In this document: piece after piece, positions 17,228 to 51,320 of the stretch
Layout: every line of letters begins with the position of its first letter
Position numbering within the stretch: position 1 is the first letter of the stretch
Origin: a phage
Sequence record: PZ296772.1
Strand: one strand, 5' to 3'
DNA length: 64,000 bases
Program-made: the position numbers and the translations under genes
Notes under the pieces: generated by a model
Told to the model about the DNA's origin: nothing
The model's database searches: none
Seen by the model: the letters and a program-made list of their open reading frames with translations, nothing else

Positions 17228-17262
17228 CGCTTTAACACGATGTGGTTATAATGACCACATCA
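17228..17262 (+). promoter_or_regulatory. candidate middle promoter with -10 embedded in perfect inverted repeat
   Basis: cgcttta MotA-box-like, 12-bp gap, tataat; atgtggt / accacat arms flank the -10. Confidence 0.45.
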
Positions 17263-23434: not shown

Positions 23435-24070
23435 ATGAAAACTACTCCTATTACTATCGCTATTGACGCAATCATAAAACAAGCTTCTTCTTTGGCCGCT
23501 ATGGCCAAAGTAATTAGTCAAAACCCTGCTCGTTATAATGCTATTCTAGAAACTCTTCGACGCCCGGGACTTAGTAATTATGAAAGCCGAGTAATTATTA
23601 CAGGTGTTGGTAAGAATGCTAATATTGCAACTAAAGCTTCTGAGACATTTGCTTCACTCGGTATCCCGAGTATGTACTTGAACACCGGGCACTATTCTCA
23701 CGGTGATGCAGGATTTATTGCGCCTAATGATGTATTAGTTCACATCAGTCGTTCTGGTAAGACTGAAGAAATGATAGGTGTTGCTAAACATCTTCGTATG
23801 ATTCGTCCTCAGGTTAAACAGATTCTGTTACATTGTAACCCTGACATTCCACAAGAATACGAAGCTCTTTTTGATTATACGTTCTGTACCGGTATCGCGG
23901 TAGAAGTTGACGAGAACTCTTTAGCTCCGACAATGTCAACCACATTGTTGTTAGCGCTTATCGATACGTTCGCTATCAACCTTTCGTCTGAGCGTGGATT
24001 TACCTCTAATGACTTCCTTAAGTTCCACCCTGGTGGTGCACTAGGTGCCATGTTACGAGGCGAACAATGA
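23435..24070 (+). CDS. SIS-domain sugar-phosphate isomerase, KdsD/GutQ-type arabinose-5-phosphate isomerase-like
   Basis: 211 aa; GVGKNANIA phosphosugar-binding loop, HGDAGFI, LAPTMSTT signature, HPGGALG. Confidence 0.75.
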   Translation: MKTTPITIAIDAIIKQASSLAAMAKVISQNPARYNAILETLRRPGLSNYESRVIITGVGKNANIATKASETFASLGIPSMYLNTGHYSHGDAGFIAPNDVLVHISRSGKTEEMIGVAKHLRMIRPQVKQILLHCNPDIPQEYEALFDYTFCTGIAVEVDENSLAPTMSTTLLLALIDTFAINLSSERGFTSNDFLKFHPGGALGAMLRGEQ

Positions 24071-24210
24071 AAGCAATAACAATAGGACTTTTACTATTGA
24101 TGCTTGTCATGACTATCTACTGGAGCTTAACGGCTCCAGTAATGATTCCAACACTTGTAATTGGATGGATTATGATTGGTCTACAGGCAAAGTATGAATG
24201 CTTTAACTAG
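24067..24210 (+). CDS. small hydrophobic membrane peptide (below ORF-track cutoff)
   Basis: 47 aa MKAITIGLLLLMLVMTIYWSL...; ATGA overlap with upstream stop. Confidence 0.35.
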   Translation: MKAITIGLLLLMLVMTIYWSLTAPVMIPTLVIGWIMIGLQAKYECFN

Positions 24211-24251
24211 AATAGTGTACAATACATCTACTTACCAATGAGGACCACAAC

Positions 24252-25937
24252 ATGAAAAAAGCTGTTATTCTTGGTGCTGGACTGGCAACTCGTTTGTATC
24301 CAATAACGCATCATATTCCAAAAGTTCTTGTGAACTATAAACAAGACACTATTCTGAGCAATTTGTATACAATTTATTCTGACCTTGGCGCAGATGAAAT
24401 TATTGTAGTAGTTCATTCAAAATTTGCTGAAACTGTTCGAGCTTATTGTGAGCAAGAAGGGTTCAATGTGACTATTCGTACAGTTGATGAAGCGTATGGT
24501 TCTGCTTATGCTCTTGCTAAATTACACAAAGATTTAGACGGCCATAATGTAATTGTTAACTGGTGTGATATTATTCCTGATTTTGGTTCATGGTCTTGGA
24601 ATGTTAACGCAATCTATGTTAAGGGTGACGAATGTCGGTATAATTTCGACGGTGAAAATATCACTAACGTAGGTTCAACAGGTGGTAATGTTGTAGGAAT
24701 TTATCAGTTCAAAGACTGGGAATTCTATATGGGTTCTACTGATGAGGAAATTCATGAATACTGCAAAGGACGCGATTTCGTAGAATTCCTTTACAGCGGC
24801 GCATTCAATAAATCAGAGCTTATGAATCTAATTGATTTAGGTGATATGCCTAAACTTGAAAAAGCTCATGAAGTTCGTGAACTTAATCGTAGTTTTAATG
24901 CAGTTGAAATTGGTGAAGAAACTGTAACTAAATTCGCATTAACCGAACAGGGTCGAGCTCTTCAGAAAGATGAGATTTCATGGTATCTTAAAGTGAAATC
25001 AGATTCAGTTCCTCAGTTAGTTTCTGTAAATGAAAATAACTTTGAAATGGAACGTATTAAAGGTAAGCCGGCATTTGAATATATTAAATCCAAATCAAGT
25101 CTTGCTCGTCCACAAATTGTTGATGCAATTTTAGATGCACTAAAATTCAGCACAGACACGTATTTTGTAAGTCCTGAAACTGTTCGTCGTGATTTCACTA
25201 AAGAATTCTATACGAAAGTTATTGATCGTTGTGAAAGCATTCAGCCATTGATTGATTCATTTGGTAAAATCACACACGTGAACTACACTAAGATTGGACG
25301 TCTGAAGCCAATGCTGAAACAAGCTTTAGAACACCTTATTCGTTATCATAACCGTTCTCAGGGACAGTACTCTGTTATTCATGGTGACCCGAACTTCAGT
25401 AATACTATGATTACTGATAACGGCGAAGTCAAGTTTATCGACCCTCGTGGATATTTTGGCGAAACCAAGATTTACGGGCCAAAATTGTATGATGAAGCTA
25501 AAGTGCTTTATGCTGTTTCAGGTTATGATGAATTCAATGCTAATCCGACCTGGGGACAGTTTACTATTGATGAAACAACTTGTAATGTGACTATTAACAT
25601 CAATCCATTAATTTACAAATATGGAAAGATGAGTTCGTTTAACGAGTATCATCATTTGGCTGTAGCAATTATCTGGATTGCATTAGGTGGTTATTTCAAG
25701 AATAATCCACTTAAAGCGGTAGCCGCATATTATAAAGGTATGGAACTTCTGACTAAGCAATTACGTAACATGGGCCGTGTACTTCAAGATGGCTCTATTA
25801 GTTATGACGTAGCAGAACCTGTAACGGCTACTCTGATTACAAAAAATCCTGGTAAATGGGTACTAACTGATAAAGAAACTGGTGTTTCCTATCGTCCAAT
25901 CGGTGGCGATATCACTCATCAATGGGAACGAATCTAA
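24252..25937 (+). CDS. bifunctional sugar-1-phosphate nucleotidyltransferase / sugar kinase
   Basis: N-terminal LGAGLATRLYPIT resembles RmlA/GlmU GxGTRL pyrophosphorylase loop; C-terminal HGDPNFSNTMI...IDPRG resembles APH/choline-kinase-type catalytic loop. Confidence 0.7.
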   Translation: MKKAVILGAGLATRLYPITHHIPKVLVNYKQDTILSNLYTIYSDLGADEIIVVVHSKFAETVRAYCEQEGFNVTIRTVDEAYGSAYALAKLHKDLDGHNVIVNWCDIIPDFGSWSWNVNAIYVKGDECRYNFDGENITNVGSTGGNVVGIYQFKDWEFYMGSTDEEIHEYCKGRDFVEFLYSGAFNKSELMNLIDLGDMPKLEKAHEVRELNRSFNAVEIGEETVTKFALTEQGRALQKDEISWYLKVKSDSVPQLVSVNENNFEMERIKGKPAFEYIKSKSSLARPQIVDAILDALKFSTDTYFVSPETVRRDFTKEFYTKVIDRCESIQPLIDSFGKITHVNYTKIGRLKPMLKQALEHLIRYHNRSQGQYSVIHGDPNFSNTMITDNGEVKFIDPRGYFGETKIYGPKLYDEAKVLYAVSGYDEFNANPTWGQFTIDETTCNVTININPLIYKYGKMSSFNEYHHLAVAIIWIALGGYFKNNPLKAVAAYYKGMELLTKQLRNMGRVLQDGSISYDVAEPVTATLITKNPGKWVLTDKETGVSYRPIGGDITHQWERI

Positions 25938-26323
25938 TGCATCGTGTAGAAAACATGCTTAATCTTTGTTTTGATGTCGACGATTGTATAACAGAGTGGA
26001 ATAACAATCGTGATTACGTGAACTTCAAGCCAGACGTCGAAATGGTGACTGCCATTAATGCCCTGTATGATGCAGGGCATACCATAACGCTTTACACTGC
26101 TCGTGGTATGAAGTCAGTAGGTCCTGGACGTATAGCAATTGACATTCTACCGAGTCTGATTCAGAACTTGGAAAACATTGGTTTGAAGTACCATAATTTG
26201 CTAACACATAAACCAGTATATGATTGGATTATCGACGACAAAGCTATGCGTCCTGACGAATTCAAAGCTCTTATGAATAAAGGCGAATTCGAAACATTTA
26301 AATCATATAAACCGAACCTATAA
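25937..26323 (+). CDS. HAD-superfamily phosphatase (KdsC-like size)
   Basis: FDVDDCIT motif I, TLYTARG motif II, IIDDKA motif IV; about 128 aa. Confidence 0.65.
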   Translation: MHRVENMLNLCFDVDDCITEWNNNRDYVNFKPDVEMVTAINALYDAGHTITLYTARGMKSVGPGRIAIDILPSLIQNLENIGLKYHNLLTHKPVYDWIIDDKAMRPDEFKALMNKGEFETFKSYKPNL

Positions 26324-26371
26324 TAATTTAAGTAAGACCTGCAAAAAAACCATCGCATCAATTAACGTGAG

Positions 26372-27541
26372 ATGCAAAAAATGAATACTTTTAAAATCGG
26401 AACGAATTTTGATTTAGCTCTTCTTGATAAAATCGTAGAGCTCAATAAAACTTATCCTAATAGCTTGATAAACGAAGTGTACGGCTCTACAAGAGAAATG
26501 GCTTTTGTAGCAGCCAGACCTGATTTTAGGCTTCCTGACGTTGACAAAAAGATGTTAGAAGATTACGTTAAACGTTGTAACGAATTAGGTATTTGCTTTA
26601 ACTATACACTCAACACGATAAATCCTGGTTCAAAAAGAGAACTAGTTGAGTGGAAGAAGAAAGCTATTCAGGATTATGTTCAGTATCTTTGGTCAATAGG
26701 CGTATGGCGTATTACTATCGCTAACCCTGTTGTTATGGAAATTGTTCGTGAAGTAAATAAAGACATTGAGATTGAAGTTTCAACAATTCTACATGTTGAT
26801 GCTGTAACTCAAATCAAATACTTGCATGACCAATATAATATCAAAAAGGTCTGCTGTGGAATTCATAAGAACCGTTCAGTTTCTTTCCTGAAGCGTGCAG
26901 CAGAGTTTTGCAATAAGAACAATATAATATTTGAAGTTCTTGTAAATGAGTTCTGTTCTAATGCTGGTAAAGGGTATACAACACATTGTAGCTATCGTGA
27001 CTCTTGCTATATTTTCCATAGTACTGATGTTACAGCTGATGATGCTAAATCCTTAAATGGATATCCAATGCAGCACTGTATTAAAGCTCGTGATACAGAC
27101 CCATTTAACTGGTTGAGAACTCGTTTTGTTCGTCCTCAAGATTTGAAACTTTATAATGATATTGGTATCACTCAATTCAAAGTTTCAGGACGTACAGGTA
27201 GCACAGACTACATTTTGAAAGTTCTTGAAGCATACGCTTCTGAAAAGTTTGAAGGTAATTTGTTAGAACTGTGGAAGCCTTTAGAGACTATTTTCACTCT
27301 TGAAAACGAAACCGAGTTTTCACATACAGTAAATATTGAAACCTCTTTGTTAGATGGCTTTTTAGAAAAAAGGTGGTTCAGACATCCAGATTTCGATTGT
27401 GCTAATGAAATCTGTGGGACGACGTGTACATATTGTGAAAGATATTATAAACGTCAGTTATCTAAAAACGGGTTAGCAGAAAACTCTATATCTATTATTG
27501 ATATAACTAACTCTGATGACGCTTTGAGGTACCCGGAATGA
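26372..27541 (+). CDS. Cys-rich protein of unknown function in the modification island
   Basis: 389 aa; cysteine-dense segment NEFCSNAGKGYTTHCSYRDSCYIF loosely reminiscent of peptidase U32-type cysteine motifs; terminal C-x-C-x5-C-T-Y-C. Confidence 0.5.
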   Translation: MQKMNTFKIGTNFDLALLDKIVELNKTYPNSLINEVYGSTREMAFVAARPDFRLPDVDKKMLEDYVKRCNELGICFNYTLNTINPGSKRELVEWKKKAIQDYVQYLWSIGVWRITIANPVVMEIVREVNKDIEIEVSTILHVDAVTQIKYLHDQYNIKKVCCGIHKNRSVSFLKRAAEFCNKNNIIFEVLVNEFCSNAGKGYTTHCSYRDSCYIFHSTDVTADDAKSLNGYPMQHCIKARDTDPFNWLRTRFVRPQDLKLYNDIGITQFKVSGRTGSTDYILKVLEAYASEKFEGNLLELWKPLETIFTLENETEFSHTVNIETSLLDGFLEKRWFRHPDFDCANEICGTTCTYCERYYKRQLSKNGLAENSISIIDITNSDDALRYPE

Positions 27542-27777
27542 TTTCTAGAAAAACTTTTAATCACCAACTTAATGAAGAGATTTTGACTACGAAACTGAAC
27601 ACTAACGAACAAATTCTTAAAAAGGCCCTTATGGGCCTGTTTGAAACCAAAGCGGCTAAAGTGATTAAAGAACCTGTTCAATTGGAATACTACGCTGATG
27701 CATTTCTTCACAGTGTTCTTGGAAGTATCGATGCTGAAGCTTTACGGTATACCAACATTGCCAAGAAATTCAAATAA
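27538..27777 (+). CDS. hypothetical protein
   Basis: 79-aa ORF coupled to upstream gene. Confidence 0.45.
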   Translation: MISRKTFNHQLNEEILTTKLNTNEQILKKALMGLFETKAAKVIKEPVQLEYYADAFLHSVLGSIDAEALRYTNIAKKFK

Positions 27778-27819
27778 GCTTTACGAATCGAGTATATAAT
27801 AAATTGTATTGAGGTAAAC

Positions 27820-28536
27820 ATGGGAAAACATAACACAATGAAATATATCAAAGCCGCAGATTTTCAAGCCGCATTTAAAGCAGTCAATCGTGAAATTTTA
27901 GAAAACCCAGAATTCGTAACTGATTCTCGTATTGGACGTTGTAATGAAATTGGGTCTATGACAGTAGTTGTTGACACTCCATCATCATTCAAAATGACCG
28001 ACCCACGTATTAACCGCATCTCTTATGAATATGCTGAAGACTTCTGGAAGTTTATGATTTCTGGTGGTACTGACGCAGAAGAAGCGTTTAAGGCATACCC
28101 TAATGTCGCTAAATTTATTTCTAAACCCAAATCAGACGCTTTGCCGGCGAACTTCAACACTTTCTATGGTCCTCGCATTGCGGCCCAATTACCAGCTCTT
28201 CTAAAAGAACTTAAAGAGAAGCCTAACTCTCGAAGAGTTGTGTTCCAAATTCTAGAAAGTTCTGATCAGGCTTTGCTTGATTCGGACGAAACGCTTGAAT
28301 ATCCATGTACTGACTCAGTGACTTATTATATTCGTGATGGTAAGCTTTATACCCACTGTCATATGCGTTCTCAGAACTGTGCTGTTGTTATGCAGTTGGA
28401 TTTTTATCTCCAAGGAAAATTACTTCATTATATCGCTAACGAATGCGGTGTAGAAGTAGGTGATTATACTCATACCATGGTAAGTGCCCATGTGTTTGAA
28501 CGTGATTTTGATTATGTTAAAGGATTCCTTGACTAA
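27820..28536 (+). CDS. 42: thymidylate-synthase-fold dCMP hydroxymethylase homologue (diverged gp42)
   Basis: 238 aa; PNSRRVV...YPCTDSVTYYIRDGKLYTHCHMRSQ aligns by eye with T4 gp42 PDSRR...MCTNTVQYLIRDKK...NMRSND. Confidence 0.65.
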   Translation: MGKHNTMKYIKAADFQAAFKAVNREILENPEFVTDSRIGRCNEIGSMTVVVDTPSSFKMTDPRINRISYEYAEDFWKFMISGGTDAEEAFKAYPNVAKFISKPKSDALPANFNTFYGPRIAAQLPALLKELKEKPNSRRVVFQILESSDQALLDSDETLEYPCTDSVTYYIRDGKLYTHCHMRSQNCAVVMQLDFYLQGKLLHYIANECGVEVGDYTHTMVSAHVFERDFDYVKGFLD

Positions 28537-29435
28537 TGGCTATTTTCCGCGTACCTATCTTGAGTATGCGGTCTTATGAAACTGGACAGTATGCTATCCT
28601 TAAGGATGGCAACTTCCAACTTCATTTGCACCGTGCTAATCCAGGTGATGTGATTACATATCCACGTAATGCATCTGATATTAAAGAATGTGAACGTCTT
28701 TTCCCGGAATTTAAGTTTGTTCCATTATGGTATAAAGATAACGCGTATAACACTCGTAAATATTTCTGGTCTGAAAATGAATTTGTGGTTGATTCATTAA
28801 TTGCTTATTATGATTGTGATTTTCTAATCACAGATATCACTGGATATGATGGCGCTTTTGACGTAGAATTCAATTTCAATATCACTGCAGACCCTAATAA
28901 ACCACGTTTTTATATTGATGAATTCTTAAAAACCGACATGTTGTCTGTTAATCGTTCAATCCAAACAACTGTGTTGAATAAACGTCAAAAGGAAGTGCTG
29001 GTTAACGCTGGTGCCGATGGTAATAAGATTATCGTAACGCAGAAAGTTATACGTCCTTCCGTCATGCAGCGTCTTGTAGGTGATTTGGCTCCTATTCATC
29101 TAGATGGTATTTTTCATCCATTTCGAATTAGTGACCCATGCTATCGTTTTGAACAAGTTGTTGAATGCGCAATTCAATTAGGTCAACCGCTTTATATAAC
29201 TGATCCAAATAATAGTTTCGACAGAAATAAGTATCCTGAAGAAGCGCTGATTCGAATTTTTAATCCAACTAAAACTGAGTACTATCAAATTCTTAAAGGA
29301 CGTCCGAAGATTCAATATTTCGAAAATCCTGAAGAAGTATTCCATCCAGGTCTTGGTGAGTTCATCTACTTTAATGCTTTAATTTCTTCACCGTATAATA
29401 TACCTAAATACGAAGATGTCGTAATCGAGGAATAA
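28536..29435 (+). CDS. hypothetical protein occupying the T4 beta-glucosyltransferase position
   Basis: 299-aa ORF coupled to the gp42 homologue; no motif recognised. Confidence 0.5.
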   Translation: MAIFRVPILSMRSYETGQYAILKDGNFQLHLHRANPGDVITYPRNASDIKECERLFPEFKFVPLWYKDNAYNTRKYFWSENEFVVDSLIAYYDCDFLITDITGYDGAFDVEFNFNITADPNKPRFYIDEFLKTDMLSVNRSIQTTVLNKRQKEVLVNAGADGNKIIVTQKVIRPSVMQRLVGDLAPIHLDGIFHPFRISDPCYRFEQVVECAIQLGQPLYITDPNNSFDRNKYPEEALIRIFNPTKTEYYQILKGRPKIQYFENPEEVFHPGLGEFIYFNALISSPYNIPKYEDVVIEE

Positions 29436-29436
29436 A

Positions 29437-29985
29437 ATGGCTAAAATTATTTTAGTAGATGGCCCGGATAATGCCGGTAAAACAACTTTCATTAATGACG
29501 TAATGGAAATTAGTGAAAGATATGTAAAGATTGATTTCCCTAAACGAACAATTGATGGACGTTTCGATGTTAAGTCTCGAAATGAAGTTGGCTGTTTCGA
29601 AACGATGTTGAATTATTTAGACCCTACTAAGATTTATCTGTTAGACCGTGGATATATTAGTAACTGGGTTTATGGACGTATTCGACAAGATGCGGACTCA
29701 GTTCTTGACGTTTATGAACAGGATTATGTTCGTCTTTGCCAAAACCATGATGTGTTCACAATTATTTTAACACGTAACGAAATGACTGAAAGTTTTGAAG
29801 ACGACCTTATTACTTTGTCTTCATTAGGTTTTAATACAGTCATTTCATATTTTGAAGAGTTTGCAATTCATAACAAAATCCAAACGTATCAATTACTTAA
29901 TCATGATGGTGCTAACAAAGTTATAGGATTTAATGCAAGCGAACGTAATAATTTGATTACAGAAATCATCAAATGGGCTCGTTAA
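29437..29985 (+). CDS. P-loop nucleotide kinase-like protein
   Basis: Walker A VDGPDNAGKTT and LLDRGY (DRY-type) motif as in dNMP/thymidylate kinases. Confidence 0.6.
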   Translation: MAKIILVDGPDNAGKTTFINDVMEISERYVKIDFPKRTIDGRFDVKSRNEVGCFETMLNYLDPTKIYLLDRGYISNWVYGRIRQDADSVLDVYEQDYVRLCQNHDVFTIILTRNEMTESFEDDLITLSSLGFNTVISYFEEFAIHNKIQTYQLLNHDGANKVIGFNASERNNLITEIIKWAR

Positions 29986-41691: not shown

Positions 41692-41843
41692 CTGGATTGG
41701 AATAACCGGATGGAACTCAGAACCATTATAACACATAAAAAATTAAAGCATTTTACGAAAAAAGTGTGTACACTACCTGAGGGCATGATATTATAGACCT
41801 ATCAGCTAAATGACCTAACGTCCGTAAGACAGAGGAAAATATT

Positions 41844-50219: not shown

Positions 50220-51320
50220 ATGAAAGTTATGTTTATCCCATCTCGTGCAGTCCCATTTAATCCTGACCGTGTACAAGGTGGACTTGAAGCAGTACATTTA
50301 AATGTGTTGAAATATCTTGTGTCCATCGGTGCTGATATTGATTATATCGGCTTTGATAATGACACGTTTGGTGACTGGAAAGTTACACACCATCCTGTTG
50401 GTCATCTGACTAAATTCAGTCTAGGTATGAGTTATACTATGGCTCGTAAGATTGTTGAACTAGCCGGCATCCATGAATACGATTTTGTTGTTACTATGGA
50501 ACCGACTAAACTAACCGTCCAAGCAATTAAAGACGCAGGTCTCTCTAAAGTTCATAAGAATTTTATGGCTACGCCATTTGAACCGGTGTCTCGTGGTATT
50601 GTTCAAATTTGGGATCAGACTATCCAGATTCACAAGAACGGTGGGAAGAGCTATGCTCCTACTAAAGCCTTCCGTGAATTTGAACGTAAATATTGTCATA
50701 TGACTTCAGCTCTTACTGACAAAATTGATTATGACTACTGGCGTGAAAATCCATTATTTGAACCTGATGACTACCCGGTTATTTGTTTGAATGAAAAACC
50801 TGAAGTTCTTCCGGCAACTGATTTGATTATTAGTGCTCAACGTTATGACACTAAGATGCGTCGCACTGATGTTGCTCTTGAAGCAATTAAAGCACTAGGC
50901 GAAAATGGTATTGGTTATTGTCCAAGCAAATGGGCACCACCAGCTAAATATCCTGTTATTATTGATGCTCCACACAGTGAAATCATGGAACGTCTTAAAA
51001 CAGCTAAAGCACTTATTAATACATGTCCTGACACAGGTACGGTAGAGAATAGTTCTATTGAAGCCATCTCTAAAGGTGTCCCTGTAATCCAGTTAGTTTT
51101 TAAGGATTATCCTCATGCGACATTCGAATACGACCCAGATACTGTGCGTGTAGAAATTGATTCCTCTACTCCTAAGAAAGAAGTAGTTGCGCTTTACACA
51201 AAAGCTGTATTAGAATTCACTGACACATACAAAGCTCGAGTTAAACGTGCTGAAGCAGTATGGAAGAAGTATAATCGAGATGCAGTTGTTGCGATGTGGG
51301 ATAAAATCTTCACAGCGTAA
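50220..51320 (+). CDS. GT-B fold glycosyltransferase (GT4-like), candidate DNA hydroxymethylcytosine pentosyltransferase
   Basis: 366 aa; N-terminal MKVMFIPSRAVPFNPDRVQGGLEAVHLNVLKYL and C-terminal GTVENSSIEAISKGVPVI resemble GT1/GT4 donor-binding motifs. Confidence 0.6.
   Translation: MKVMFIPSRAVPFNPDRVQGGLEAVHLNVLKYLVSIGADIDYIGFDNDTFGDWKVTHHPVGHLTKFSLGMSYTMARKIVELAGIHEYDFVVTMEPTKLTVQAIKDAGLSKVHKNFMATPFEPVSRGIVQIWDQTIQIHKNGGKSYAPTKAFREFERKYCHMTSALTDKIDYDYWRENPLFEPDDYPVICLNEKPEVLPATDLIISAQRYDTKMRRTDVALEAIKALGENGIGYCPSKWAPPAKYPVIIDAPHSEIMERLKTAKALINTCPDTGTVENSSIEAISKGVPVIQLVFKDYPHATFEYDPDTVRVEIDSSTPKKEVVALYTKAVLEFTDTYKARVKRAEAVWKKYNRDAVVAMWDKIFTA

Follow-up and report, generated by a model that had tools for sequence, protein, structure and literature searches.

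We describe a 299-amino-acid (aa) protein encoded by an open reading frame (ORF) with an ATG start (28536..29435, + strand) in 64,000 nucleotides (nt) of phage DNA (sequence record PZ296772.1; this whole stretch is called the window below). The protein is confidently modeled as a compact glycosyltransferase (GT) of the GT-B fold, and it most likely adds the first, base-proximal sugar of a DNA modification, not a further one. We consider it fairly probable that this step is the transfer of the first arabinose, from uridine diphosphate (UDP)-D-arabinofuranose, to 5-hydroxycytosine (5hoC) in DNA.

The assignment is a rediscovery, already present in the literature of 2025-26 as a prediction from the same kind of evidence. 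The DNA of phage RB69 contains mono- and di-arabinosylated 5hoC and not arabinosyl-hydroxymethylcytosine (Lee et al., NAR 2026, PMC13326640; bioRxiv June 2025). In that work, RB69 genes 46 and 47 were found to be one ORF split by a sequencing error, with gp46:47 proposed as "arabinosyltransferase 1" and gp3 as the second transferase (PMC13326640). The chemistry of the modification, the activity of the 5-hydroxy-deoxycytidine monophosphate (5hodCMP) synthase, and the addition of a third arabinose on DNA have been established by others (PMC13326640). Our independent model and searches reproduced the numbers of Lee et al. (PMC13326640).

Results

The 299-aa protein was modeled with AlphaFold2 from an alignment of 57 sequences (36-75% identity to the query), with a mean predicted local distance difference test (pLDDT) score of 95.3 and a predicted template modeling (pTM) score of 0.90. 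The model consists of two successive beta/alpha/beta units (seven and then five strands) and a terminal helix, and it has the features of a GT-B enzyme, namely two Rossmann-like domains, a cleft between them, and a C-terminal helix that crosses back. With about 100 residues and five strands, the C-terminal domain is unusually short. All of the top 60 structural matches were GT-B enzymes; Foldseek matches included MshA (3c4q) and UDP-N-acetylglucosamine 2-epimerases, and the best matches in a viral structure library were an Acinetobacter phage ortholog (template modeling [TM] score, 0.95) and the RB69 ORF047c and ORF046c halves. The original prediction, made from the sequence alone, had suggested a transferase-type protein of a DNA-modification pathway; the modeled GT-B fold supports this, and neither of the folds that would have spoken against it (a virion protein or a housekeeping protein) was found.

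Sequence searches confirmed the earlier remark that no GT motif is recognizable at that level. The best Pfam match had an E value of no less than 0.27, none of 120 listed homologs had a precomputed Pfam domain, and nothing matched in NCBIfam; profiles of GT4/Pfam Glycos_transf_1 (PF00534) and Glyco_trans_4 were likewise without a match. A PDB search with the single sequence (phmmer) returned no match, and one with the 57-sequence profile returned no GT even at an E value of ≤10. BLASTP detected no homology to T4 beta-GT (E = 0.88), and there was no sequence similarity to the 366-aa GT that the window also encodes. The protein did match phrog_3891 (unknown function; E = 8.4e-156, residues 1 to 298 against positions 1 to 300 of the 306-position profile), and a profile search found only 229 clusters of this family among 1.84 billion representative proteins. 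It is an intact ortholog of RB69 ORF046c+047c (98% identity), which is split in two in the RB69 record, and is 46 to 47% identical to the DLP/KARL-1 and Thanatos proteins. Several records (among them UniRef A0A060BNG9, Thanatos-2 TH2_066, and phages IME341 and C6) call the family "RNA polymerase binding protein"; we rejected this name, as there is no similarity to T4 RpbA (best BLASTP E value, 37), and it is probably a propagated annotation error.

About 28 residues, polar and charged, are invariant across family members of 36 to 99% identity. Among these, R197, K246, H270-P271-G272 (at the start of helix 271 to 278), and E/D275 all lie in the C-terminal half; this is the Rossmann half of the model that in GT-B enzymes holds the nucleotide-sugar, and the residues may serve that purpose here. 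An apparent EX7E motif of the GT4 type (E267...E275) was rejected because E267 is K or T in most members; the conserved acidic positions of the family are E/D263 and E/D275, 12 apart.

The ORF and its start are taken as real because full-length homologs are present in 349 phage records (45 to 99% identity; 137 protein clusters) and the family alignment is conserved from residue 1. The opposite strand has no ORF longer than 55 aa across the locus. As claimed earlier, the ORF overlaps the upstream stop: the TAA of the ThyA-like ORF (28534-28536) and the ATG of the GT gene (28536-28538) share one base, an arrangement that points to translational coupling of the two genes. A Shine-Dalgarno-like AAGGA (28520-28524) precedes the GT start by 11 nt. 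The same stop/start overlap is found in Thanatos-2 (L010), in which coordinate 5995 is common to both genes, and the overlap is 4 nt in the metagenomic contig L004. A 6.1-kb stretch around the GT gene is 99.7% identical to Escherichia phage PTK, 99.3% to phage AlbertHofmann (Bas47; MZ501047, locus tags bas47_), and 98% to many other RB69-group Mosigvirus genomes, and on this similarity the source phage is assigned to Mosigvirus as an RB69-like coliphage.

The upstream ThyA-like protein identifies the probable acceptor base. It is near-identical to PDB 9iqc/9ir2/9iqu over its full length (E = 4.5e-162) and only 25% identical to T4 gp42. At the ThyA D169 position it has N ("MRSQN"), where the gp42 proteins of T4 ("MRSND") and Serratia phage PS2 have D, and N at this position is the signature used by Lee et al. 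for 5hodCMP synthases (PMC13326640). The signature was present in all ThyA-like genes checked (the window, Thanatos-2, and contigs L002 and L004). RB69 gp48, a ThyA homolog, has been shown experimentally to make 5hodCMP with O2 and flavin (PMC13326640). The gene had been taken in the original prediction for a dCMP hydroxymethylase homolog; N169, the 9iqc match, and the low identity to gp42 make it a 5hodCMP synthase instead, so the acceptor is expected to be 5hoC and not hydroxymethylcytosine (hmC). Many GenBank records still name the ThyA-like gene dCMP hydroxymethylase or thymidylate synthase.

The order of genes in the window is DNA polymerase, SIS isomerase, small ORF, 561-aa NTP-transferase/kinase, phosphatase, U32 protein, 79-aa ORF, ThyA-like gene, 299-aa GT, 182-aa kinase, uvsX, 40, and 41, to be compared with 43, imm.1, imm, 42, b-gt, segA, uvsX, 40, and 41 in T4. 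The 299-aa ORF thus lies directly 3' of the gp42 homolog, the slot held by b-gt in T4. The suggestion that it replaces b-gt stands for position and fails for sequence homology, as the BLASTP comparison above indicates. Position does not imply equivalence in any case, because Serratia phage PS2 holds a relative of the family and beta-gt in tandem (L011 5001-5927; a D169-type gp42, then a 308-aa diverged relative, beta-alpha-gt, beta-gt, and uvsX). That relative matches the family profile over the N-terminal two thirds (E = 6e-27), has lost the invariant SMRS, KDGN, and PFRISD, and appears to be what is left of the GT family in an hmC/glucose phage, either decayed or put to another use. With the invariant residues lost, it was rejected as evidence of the family's function in hmC phages.

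Every relative examined, down to an E value of 1e-32, lies next to or near ThyA-like, SIS, NTP-transferase/kinase, and U32 genes. The triad of N169-type ThyA, GT, and thymidylate-kinase-like kinase is present in the window, Bas47, Thanatos-2, and L004; in L007 the ThyA-like gene is directly 5' of the GT gene and SIS follows instead of the kinase, and in L002 a few genes separate the two, with the ThyA-like gene again on the 5' side. The supply genes (SIS, NTP-transferase/kinase, and phosphatase) accompany the GT gene in the window and in contigs L002, L005, L007, and L008, and L004 has only the triad and a flavodoxin-like gene within 8 kb. From these neighborhoods, the phrog_3891 family appears to be dedicated to the 5hoC/arabinose pathway and to be its universal transferase.

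The second GT of the window, at 50220, is 97.5% identical to RB69 ORF003c and matches PDB 9iqz (E = 6.7e-250). Phage records number 349 for the 299-aa GT, 344 for the 182-aa kinase, 374 for the NTP-transferase/kinase (with a host distribution matching that of the GT), and 212 for the 50220-type GT. The last is found as one copy in Escherichia/Shigella Mosigvirus-type phages and as two in Acinetobacter phages, and in no others. About 140 records have the 299-aa type without the 50220 type, and phages of Klebsiella, Serratia, Enterobacter, Yersinia, Proteus, Shewanella, Edwardsiella, and other hosts have the 299-aa type alone. Thanatos, RB69, and DLP3 carry one, two, and three sugars per base (PMC13326640) and have one, two, and three GTs, respectively. 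The 299-aa GT is the candidate for the first sugar because it is the only GT common to all such clusters, with the 50220 type restricted to di- and tri-arabinosylating lineages.

Discussion

In the proposed pathway, the ThyA-like enzyme would make 5hodCMP, kinases would convert it to the triphosphate, and the polymerase would incorporate 5-hydroxy-dCTP into DNA. The 299-aa protein, as a metal-independent GT-B enzyme, would then act after replication, arabinosylating the base within DNA in the manner of the T4 glucosyltransferases, presumably with retention of configuration. Its donor would be UDP-D-arabinofuranose from the upstream phage genes and its product alpha-D-Araf-O5-cytosine, which the GT at 50220 would extend from the mono- to the di-arabinosyl form. 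The tight coupling of the GT gene to the gene of the acceptor-base enzyme, with a middle-promoter-like site upstream, supports such a function. The assignment is also in line with the alpha linkage reported for the base-proximal arabinose (PMC13326640), the closest structural neighbors of the model being retaining enzymes.

Several points weigh against this assignment. No glycosyl-transfer activity has been demonstrated for any member of the family in the accessible literature. With UDP-arabinofuranose or UDP-arabinopyranose as donor, purified DLP3 gp79 did not arabinosylate 5hoC-DNA, and Lee et al. leave it undecided whether the first sugar is placed on the mononucleotide or on DNA (PMC13326640). 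Thanatos TH1_063, supplied with UDP-xylose, did not glycosylate plasmid DNA, dCMP, dCTP, or cytosine, all of them substrates without the 5-hydroxyl, and was reported to form UDP-xylose from UTP and xylose-1-phosphate (PMC12838424). The 299-aa protein has no sequence-level link to any CAZy or Pfam GT family and no EX7E motif. It is also acidic, with an isoelectric point (pI) of 5.2 (family median, 5.2) versus 9.05 for T4 beta-GT; net charge as a discriminator between DNA and nucleotide acceptors is suggestive only, as the 366-aa GT (pI 6.6), which has DNA-acting relatives, is not basic either. Finally, each of the two phage GTs is similar to retaining GT4 enzymes, but RB69 DNA has linkages of both kinds, alpha for the base-proximal arabinose and beta for the distal one (PMC13326640). 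Because retaining-like folds in both GTs go with alpha and beta linkages, the stereochemistry is not readable from the fold. Either one of the two GTs departs from the mechanism of its fold neighbors or the assignments are swapped.

The strongest competitor concerns the acceptor. Free 5hodCMP (or its di- or triphosphate) could be arabinosylated before replication, with the thymidylate-kinase-like kinase dedicated to the product and the polymerase incorporating a glycosylated deoxynucleoside triphosphate; we regard this as unlikely, though deserving of attention. Its case is built on the kinase, whose homolog Lee et al. call a "nucleotide kinase" (PMC13326640). In the window, the kinase ORF begins two bases past the GT stop, and its Shine-Dalgarno sequence, GAGGA (29427-29431), falls within the final GT codons. 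The two genes are adjacent in the inspected loci and contigs, with near-identical record counts (349 versus 344) and host distributions. In at least five uncultured viral clusters they form one polypeptide, with phrog_3891 followed by a C-terminal phrog_761 (P0234, P0236, P0257, P0259, and P0238). One GT-kinase fusion lies at 7278-9002 of contig L005, which is T4-like and has SIS, NTP-transferase, HAD, and U32 genes next to it. Since the phage has, in addition, a deoxynucleoside monophosphate (dNMP) kinase of the T4 gp1 type, which already phosphorylates 5hodCMP (PMC13326640), the second kinase needs another job. The absence of in vitro activity on 5hoC-DNA would fit as well, mononucleotide acceptors not being among those reported (PMC13326640), as would the acidity of the GT and the small phosphorylated or acidic acceptors (fructose-6-phosphate, inositol-1-phosphate, and malate) of its best structural neighbors.

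However, the likeness to small-molecule GTs exists at the fold level only, and the 182-aa kinase may be no more than the main 5hodCMP kinase. In every known case phage DNA is glycosylated after replication, and this holds for the third arabinose of DLP3, which is added on DNA; moreover, 5-hydroxydeoxycytidine enters DNA when only the synthase and the dNMP kinase are expressed, so its triphosphate is a usable precursor (PMC13326640). The fusions are also less telling than they look, because a KdsC-like HAD phosphatase is likewise fused to the N-terminal side of the GT (P0141, P0154, and P0199); these fusions join non-consecutive steps, and a GT fusion thus indicates a shared pathway and not consecutive reactions. 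BLASTP of the window kinase against the C termini of the fusion proteins found nothing, the link being seen only with the PHROG profile. We did not find the GT fusions mentioned in the accessible literature. They sharpen the question of whether the acceptor is DNA or nucleotide; with a nucleotide acceptor, no earlier example would be known of a viral genome whose nucleotides are glycosylated before replication, and the conserved hydroxylase-GT-kinase triad would be the portable core module of this route.

Transfer to DNA thus being preferred, the order of the two GTs could still be reversed, with the 50220 GT installing the first sugar and the 299-aa protein acting on the already glycosylated base. 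ORF003c was indeed proposed as "the" arabinosyltransferase of RB69 by Thomas et al. 2018 (PMC6024577), and a need for a glycosylated acceptor would fit the inactivity of gp79 on bare 5hoC-DNA. Nevertheless, we hold this order to be quite improbable, given the roughly 140 records that lack the 50220 type and the single pentose of Thanatos, which has this one GT only. Mahler et al. 2025 are said to describe the Aat enzymes for the second and third arabinose as accessory ones. Addition of the distal sugar to RB69 DNA has been demonstrated for DLP3 gp76+gp77, which are of the 50220 type (PMC13326640). The original suggestion of a second transferase adding a further sugar is therefore probably wrong (349 versus 212 records; mono-arabinosylated Thanatos with this GT only).

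According to the model of the Thanatos paper, the 299-aa protein would be a sugar-1-phosphate uridylyltransferase (UDP-pentose pyrophosphorylase), and another protein would carry out the transfer. Purified TH1_063, syntenic and 47% identical, gave UDP-xylose from UTP and xylose-1-phosphate by liquid chromatography-tandem mass spectrometry (PMC12838424). The fold, however, is GT-B and not that of a nucleotidyltransferase, the NTP_transferase signature is absent (no PF00483 or PF12804 match to the 299-aa protein), and the 561-aa protein already provides a true NTP_transferase domain, its HY126 homolog AfhE having been reported, as relayed in PMC13326640, as a UDP-arabinose pyrophosphorylase. For the Thanatos assay only a no-enzyme control is described (PMC12838424), so that a co-purifying host enzyme of the GalU type could be responsible. 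With the GT-B fold, a separate NTP_transferase protein, and that single control, TH1_063 is unlikely to be a UDP-xylose pyrophosphorylase, and we think a uridylyltransferase role for the window protein very improbable indeed.

We find it scarcely credible that the protein is noncatalytic and serves the other GT as an accessory or scaffold, or else is an "RNA polymerase binding protein": some UniRef and GenBank records carry the latter name, DLP3 gp76 and gp77 work only together, so GT partnerships exist in the system (PMC13326640), and the degenerate PS2 relative has lost the invariant residues, but there is no similarity to RpbA, some 28 invariant polar or charged residues across 36 to 99% identity are typical of an active enzyme, and the protein is the sole GT of single-GT phages, for which reasons the modification accessory factor of the original prediction is also unlikely.

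Arabinosyl-5hoC is a recently described DNA hypermodification, and Mosigviruses with the modification are common phage-therapy candidates. Papers citing Mahler et al. 2025 credit the modification with shielding phages from type II restriction-modification, type I CRISPR-Cas, and the glycosylase Brig1. As the leading candidate for committing 5hoC to glycosylation, the 299-aa GT would, if its activity were demonstrated, complete the pathway, and it would provide both a marker gene from which the modification could be predicted in sequences and a means of preparing arabinosylated DNA.

Neighboring genes and promoter-like sites

The features of the locus are listed in Table 1. From its gene content, the block at 23435..27777 is taken to supply UDP-arabinofuranose; the Bas47 record annotates its genes as "UDP-arabinose biosynthesis," and activities have been reported for the HY126 homologs AfhE and AfhF (as relayed in PMC13326640). 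The 79-aa ORF that ends the block is basic (pI 9.3), of unknown function, conserved in Bas47, and overlaps the stop of the U32 gene (ATGA).

Table 1. Positions of the genes and sites discussed, in window coordinates
Feature	Position	Strand	Basis or remark
SIS arabinose-5-phosphate isomerase (predicted)	23435-24070	+	Pfam SIS
561-aa bifunctional sugar-1-phosphate nucleotidyltransferase/kinase (predicted)	24252-25937	+	PF00483 (8.5e-10) and kinase-like; NCBIfam nucleotidyltransferase
HAD phosphatase (predicted)	25922-26323	+	
U32-family protein	26372-27541	+	Pfam Peptidase_U32
79-aa ORF	27538-27777	+	phrog_8601
Middle-promoter-like site (MotA-box-like GCTTTA, 11-nt spacer, TATAAT)	27778..27800	+	20 nt 5' of the ThyA-like start
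ThyA-superfamily 5hodCMP synthase, flavin and O2 dependent (predicted)	27820..28536	+	Pfam Thymidylat_synt (2.4e-15); PDB 9iqc/9ir2
TAATG stop/start overlap, ThyA-like gene/GT gene	28534..28538	+	Visible in the sequence itself
299-aa compact GT-B fold protein, phrog_3891; ortholog of RB69 gp46:47, DLP3 gp79, and Thanatos TH1_063	28536..29435	+	Predicted first arabinosyltransferase
Second middle-promoter-like site	29376..29399	+	In the 3' end of the GT gene, 5' of the kinase start
182-aa P-loop kinase, thymidylate-kinase type, RB69 gp45 homolog	29437..29985	+	phrog_761 (E = 3.4e-44)
Second GT, 366 aa, RB69 gp3 homolog	50220..51320	+	Proposed to add the second arabinose
Further middle-promoter-like site	17229-17252	+	Pattern match
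Further middle-promoter-like site	41725-41749	-	Pattern match

The U32 protein is kept in most clusters with the GT family (L005, L008, and Thanatos-2). Between the coliphage and Thanatos-2 it is 79% identical, compared with 47% for the GT and 44% for the kinase, and it ends in a cysteine cluster (C-x5-C-x3-C-x2-C). The ThyA-like synthase needs O2; in contrast, the U32 protein could provide an anaerobic route to 5hoC for a gut phage. The U32 members RlhA and TrhP also function without O2. U32 members have been linked to hydroxylation, RlhA to ho5C2501 of 23S rRNA, TrhP to ho5U34 of tRNA, and UbiU/UbiV to O2-independent ubiquinone hydroxylation (PMC5727448, PMC6599085, PMC6747719), with prephenate described as the oxygen donor in anaerobic ubiquinone synthesis (PMC10990095). 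Lee et al. label the U32 protein only as a "sugar or heterocycle reductase" (PMC13326640).

A Flavodoxin_2 gene, resembling NAD(P)H-dependent flavin mononucleotide reductases, lies beside the ThyA-like, GT, and kinase genes in L004 (6739-7293) and near them in L002 (605-1123), in keeping with the reduced flavin that a flavin-dependent hydroxylase requires. No Flavodoxin_2 homolog was found in the window (tblastn, E ≤ 1e-3), and the coliphage presumably uses a flavin reductase of its host.

The pattern GCTTTA-N10-13-TATAAT, which resembles T4 middle promoters, occurs four times in the window versus 0.12 expected. The site just 5' of the ThyA-like gene is, from its sequence and place, likely the promoter of a ThyA-like/GT/kinase transcription unit, and the one within the 3' end of the GT gene may be a promoter too. 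No terminator-like sites were found between 27820 and 29985. Within the cluster, sigma-70 promoters and terminators were not enriched over shuffled sequences, and only the MotA-box-like pattern was.

Comparison with known systems

The nearest counterparts of the 299-aa GT are RB69 gp46:47 and DLP3 gp79. A sequencing error divides the ORF in the RB69 record, whereas in the window it is intact; the function of these counterparts is predicted too, with DLP3 gp79 inactive on 5hoC-DNA in vitro. Thanatos TH1_063 (300 aa, 47% identity) is an ortholog in the same setting: its start overlaps the stop of the ThyA-like gene directly 5' of it, and the kinase gene comes next. Its reported role as a UDP-xylose pyrophosphorylase comes from one in vitro assay (PMC12838424).

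T4 beta-GT (GT63) and alpha-GT (GT72) join glucose to hmC, whereas the window GT is predicted to join arabinofuranose to 5hoC, at a ring hydroxyl and through an ether link. The window GT is smaller and acidic, and DNA as its acceptor is a prediction. With T4 beta-GT it has in common the gene position after 42, but neither sequence homology nor the hmC acceptor. Retaining GT4-type enzymes (sucrose-phosphate synthase 6kih, BshA 6n1x, PimA 2gej, and MshA 3c4q) are only 8 to 13% identical to the window GT, which differs from them in having no Pfam match, no PDB-profile match, no EX7E motif, and a short C-terminal domain. The HY126 GT (PDB 9iqz), which corresponds to RB69 gp3 and to window positions 50220-51320, belongs to a sequence family unrelated to that of the 299-aa GT; this 366-aa type has the narrower distribution of the two and is assigned the second arabinose.

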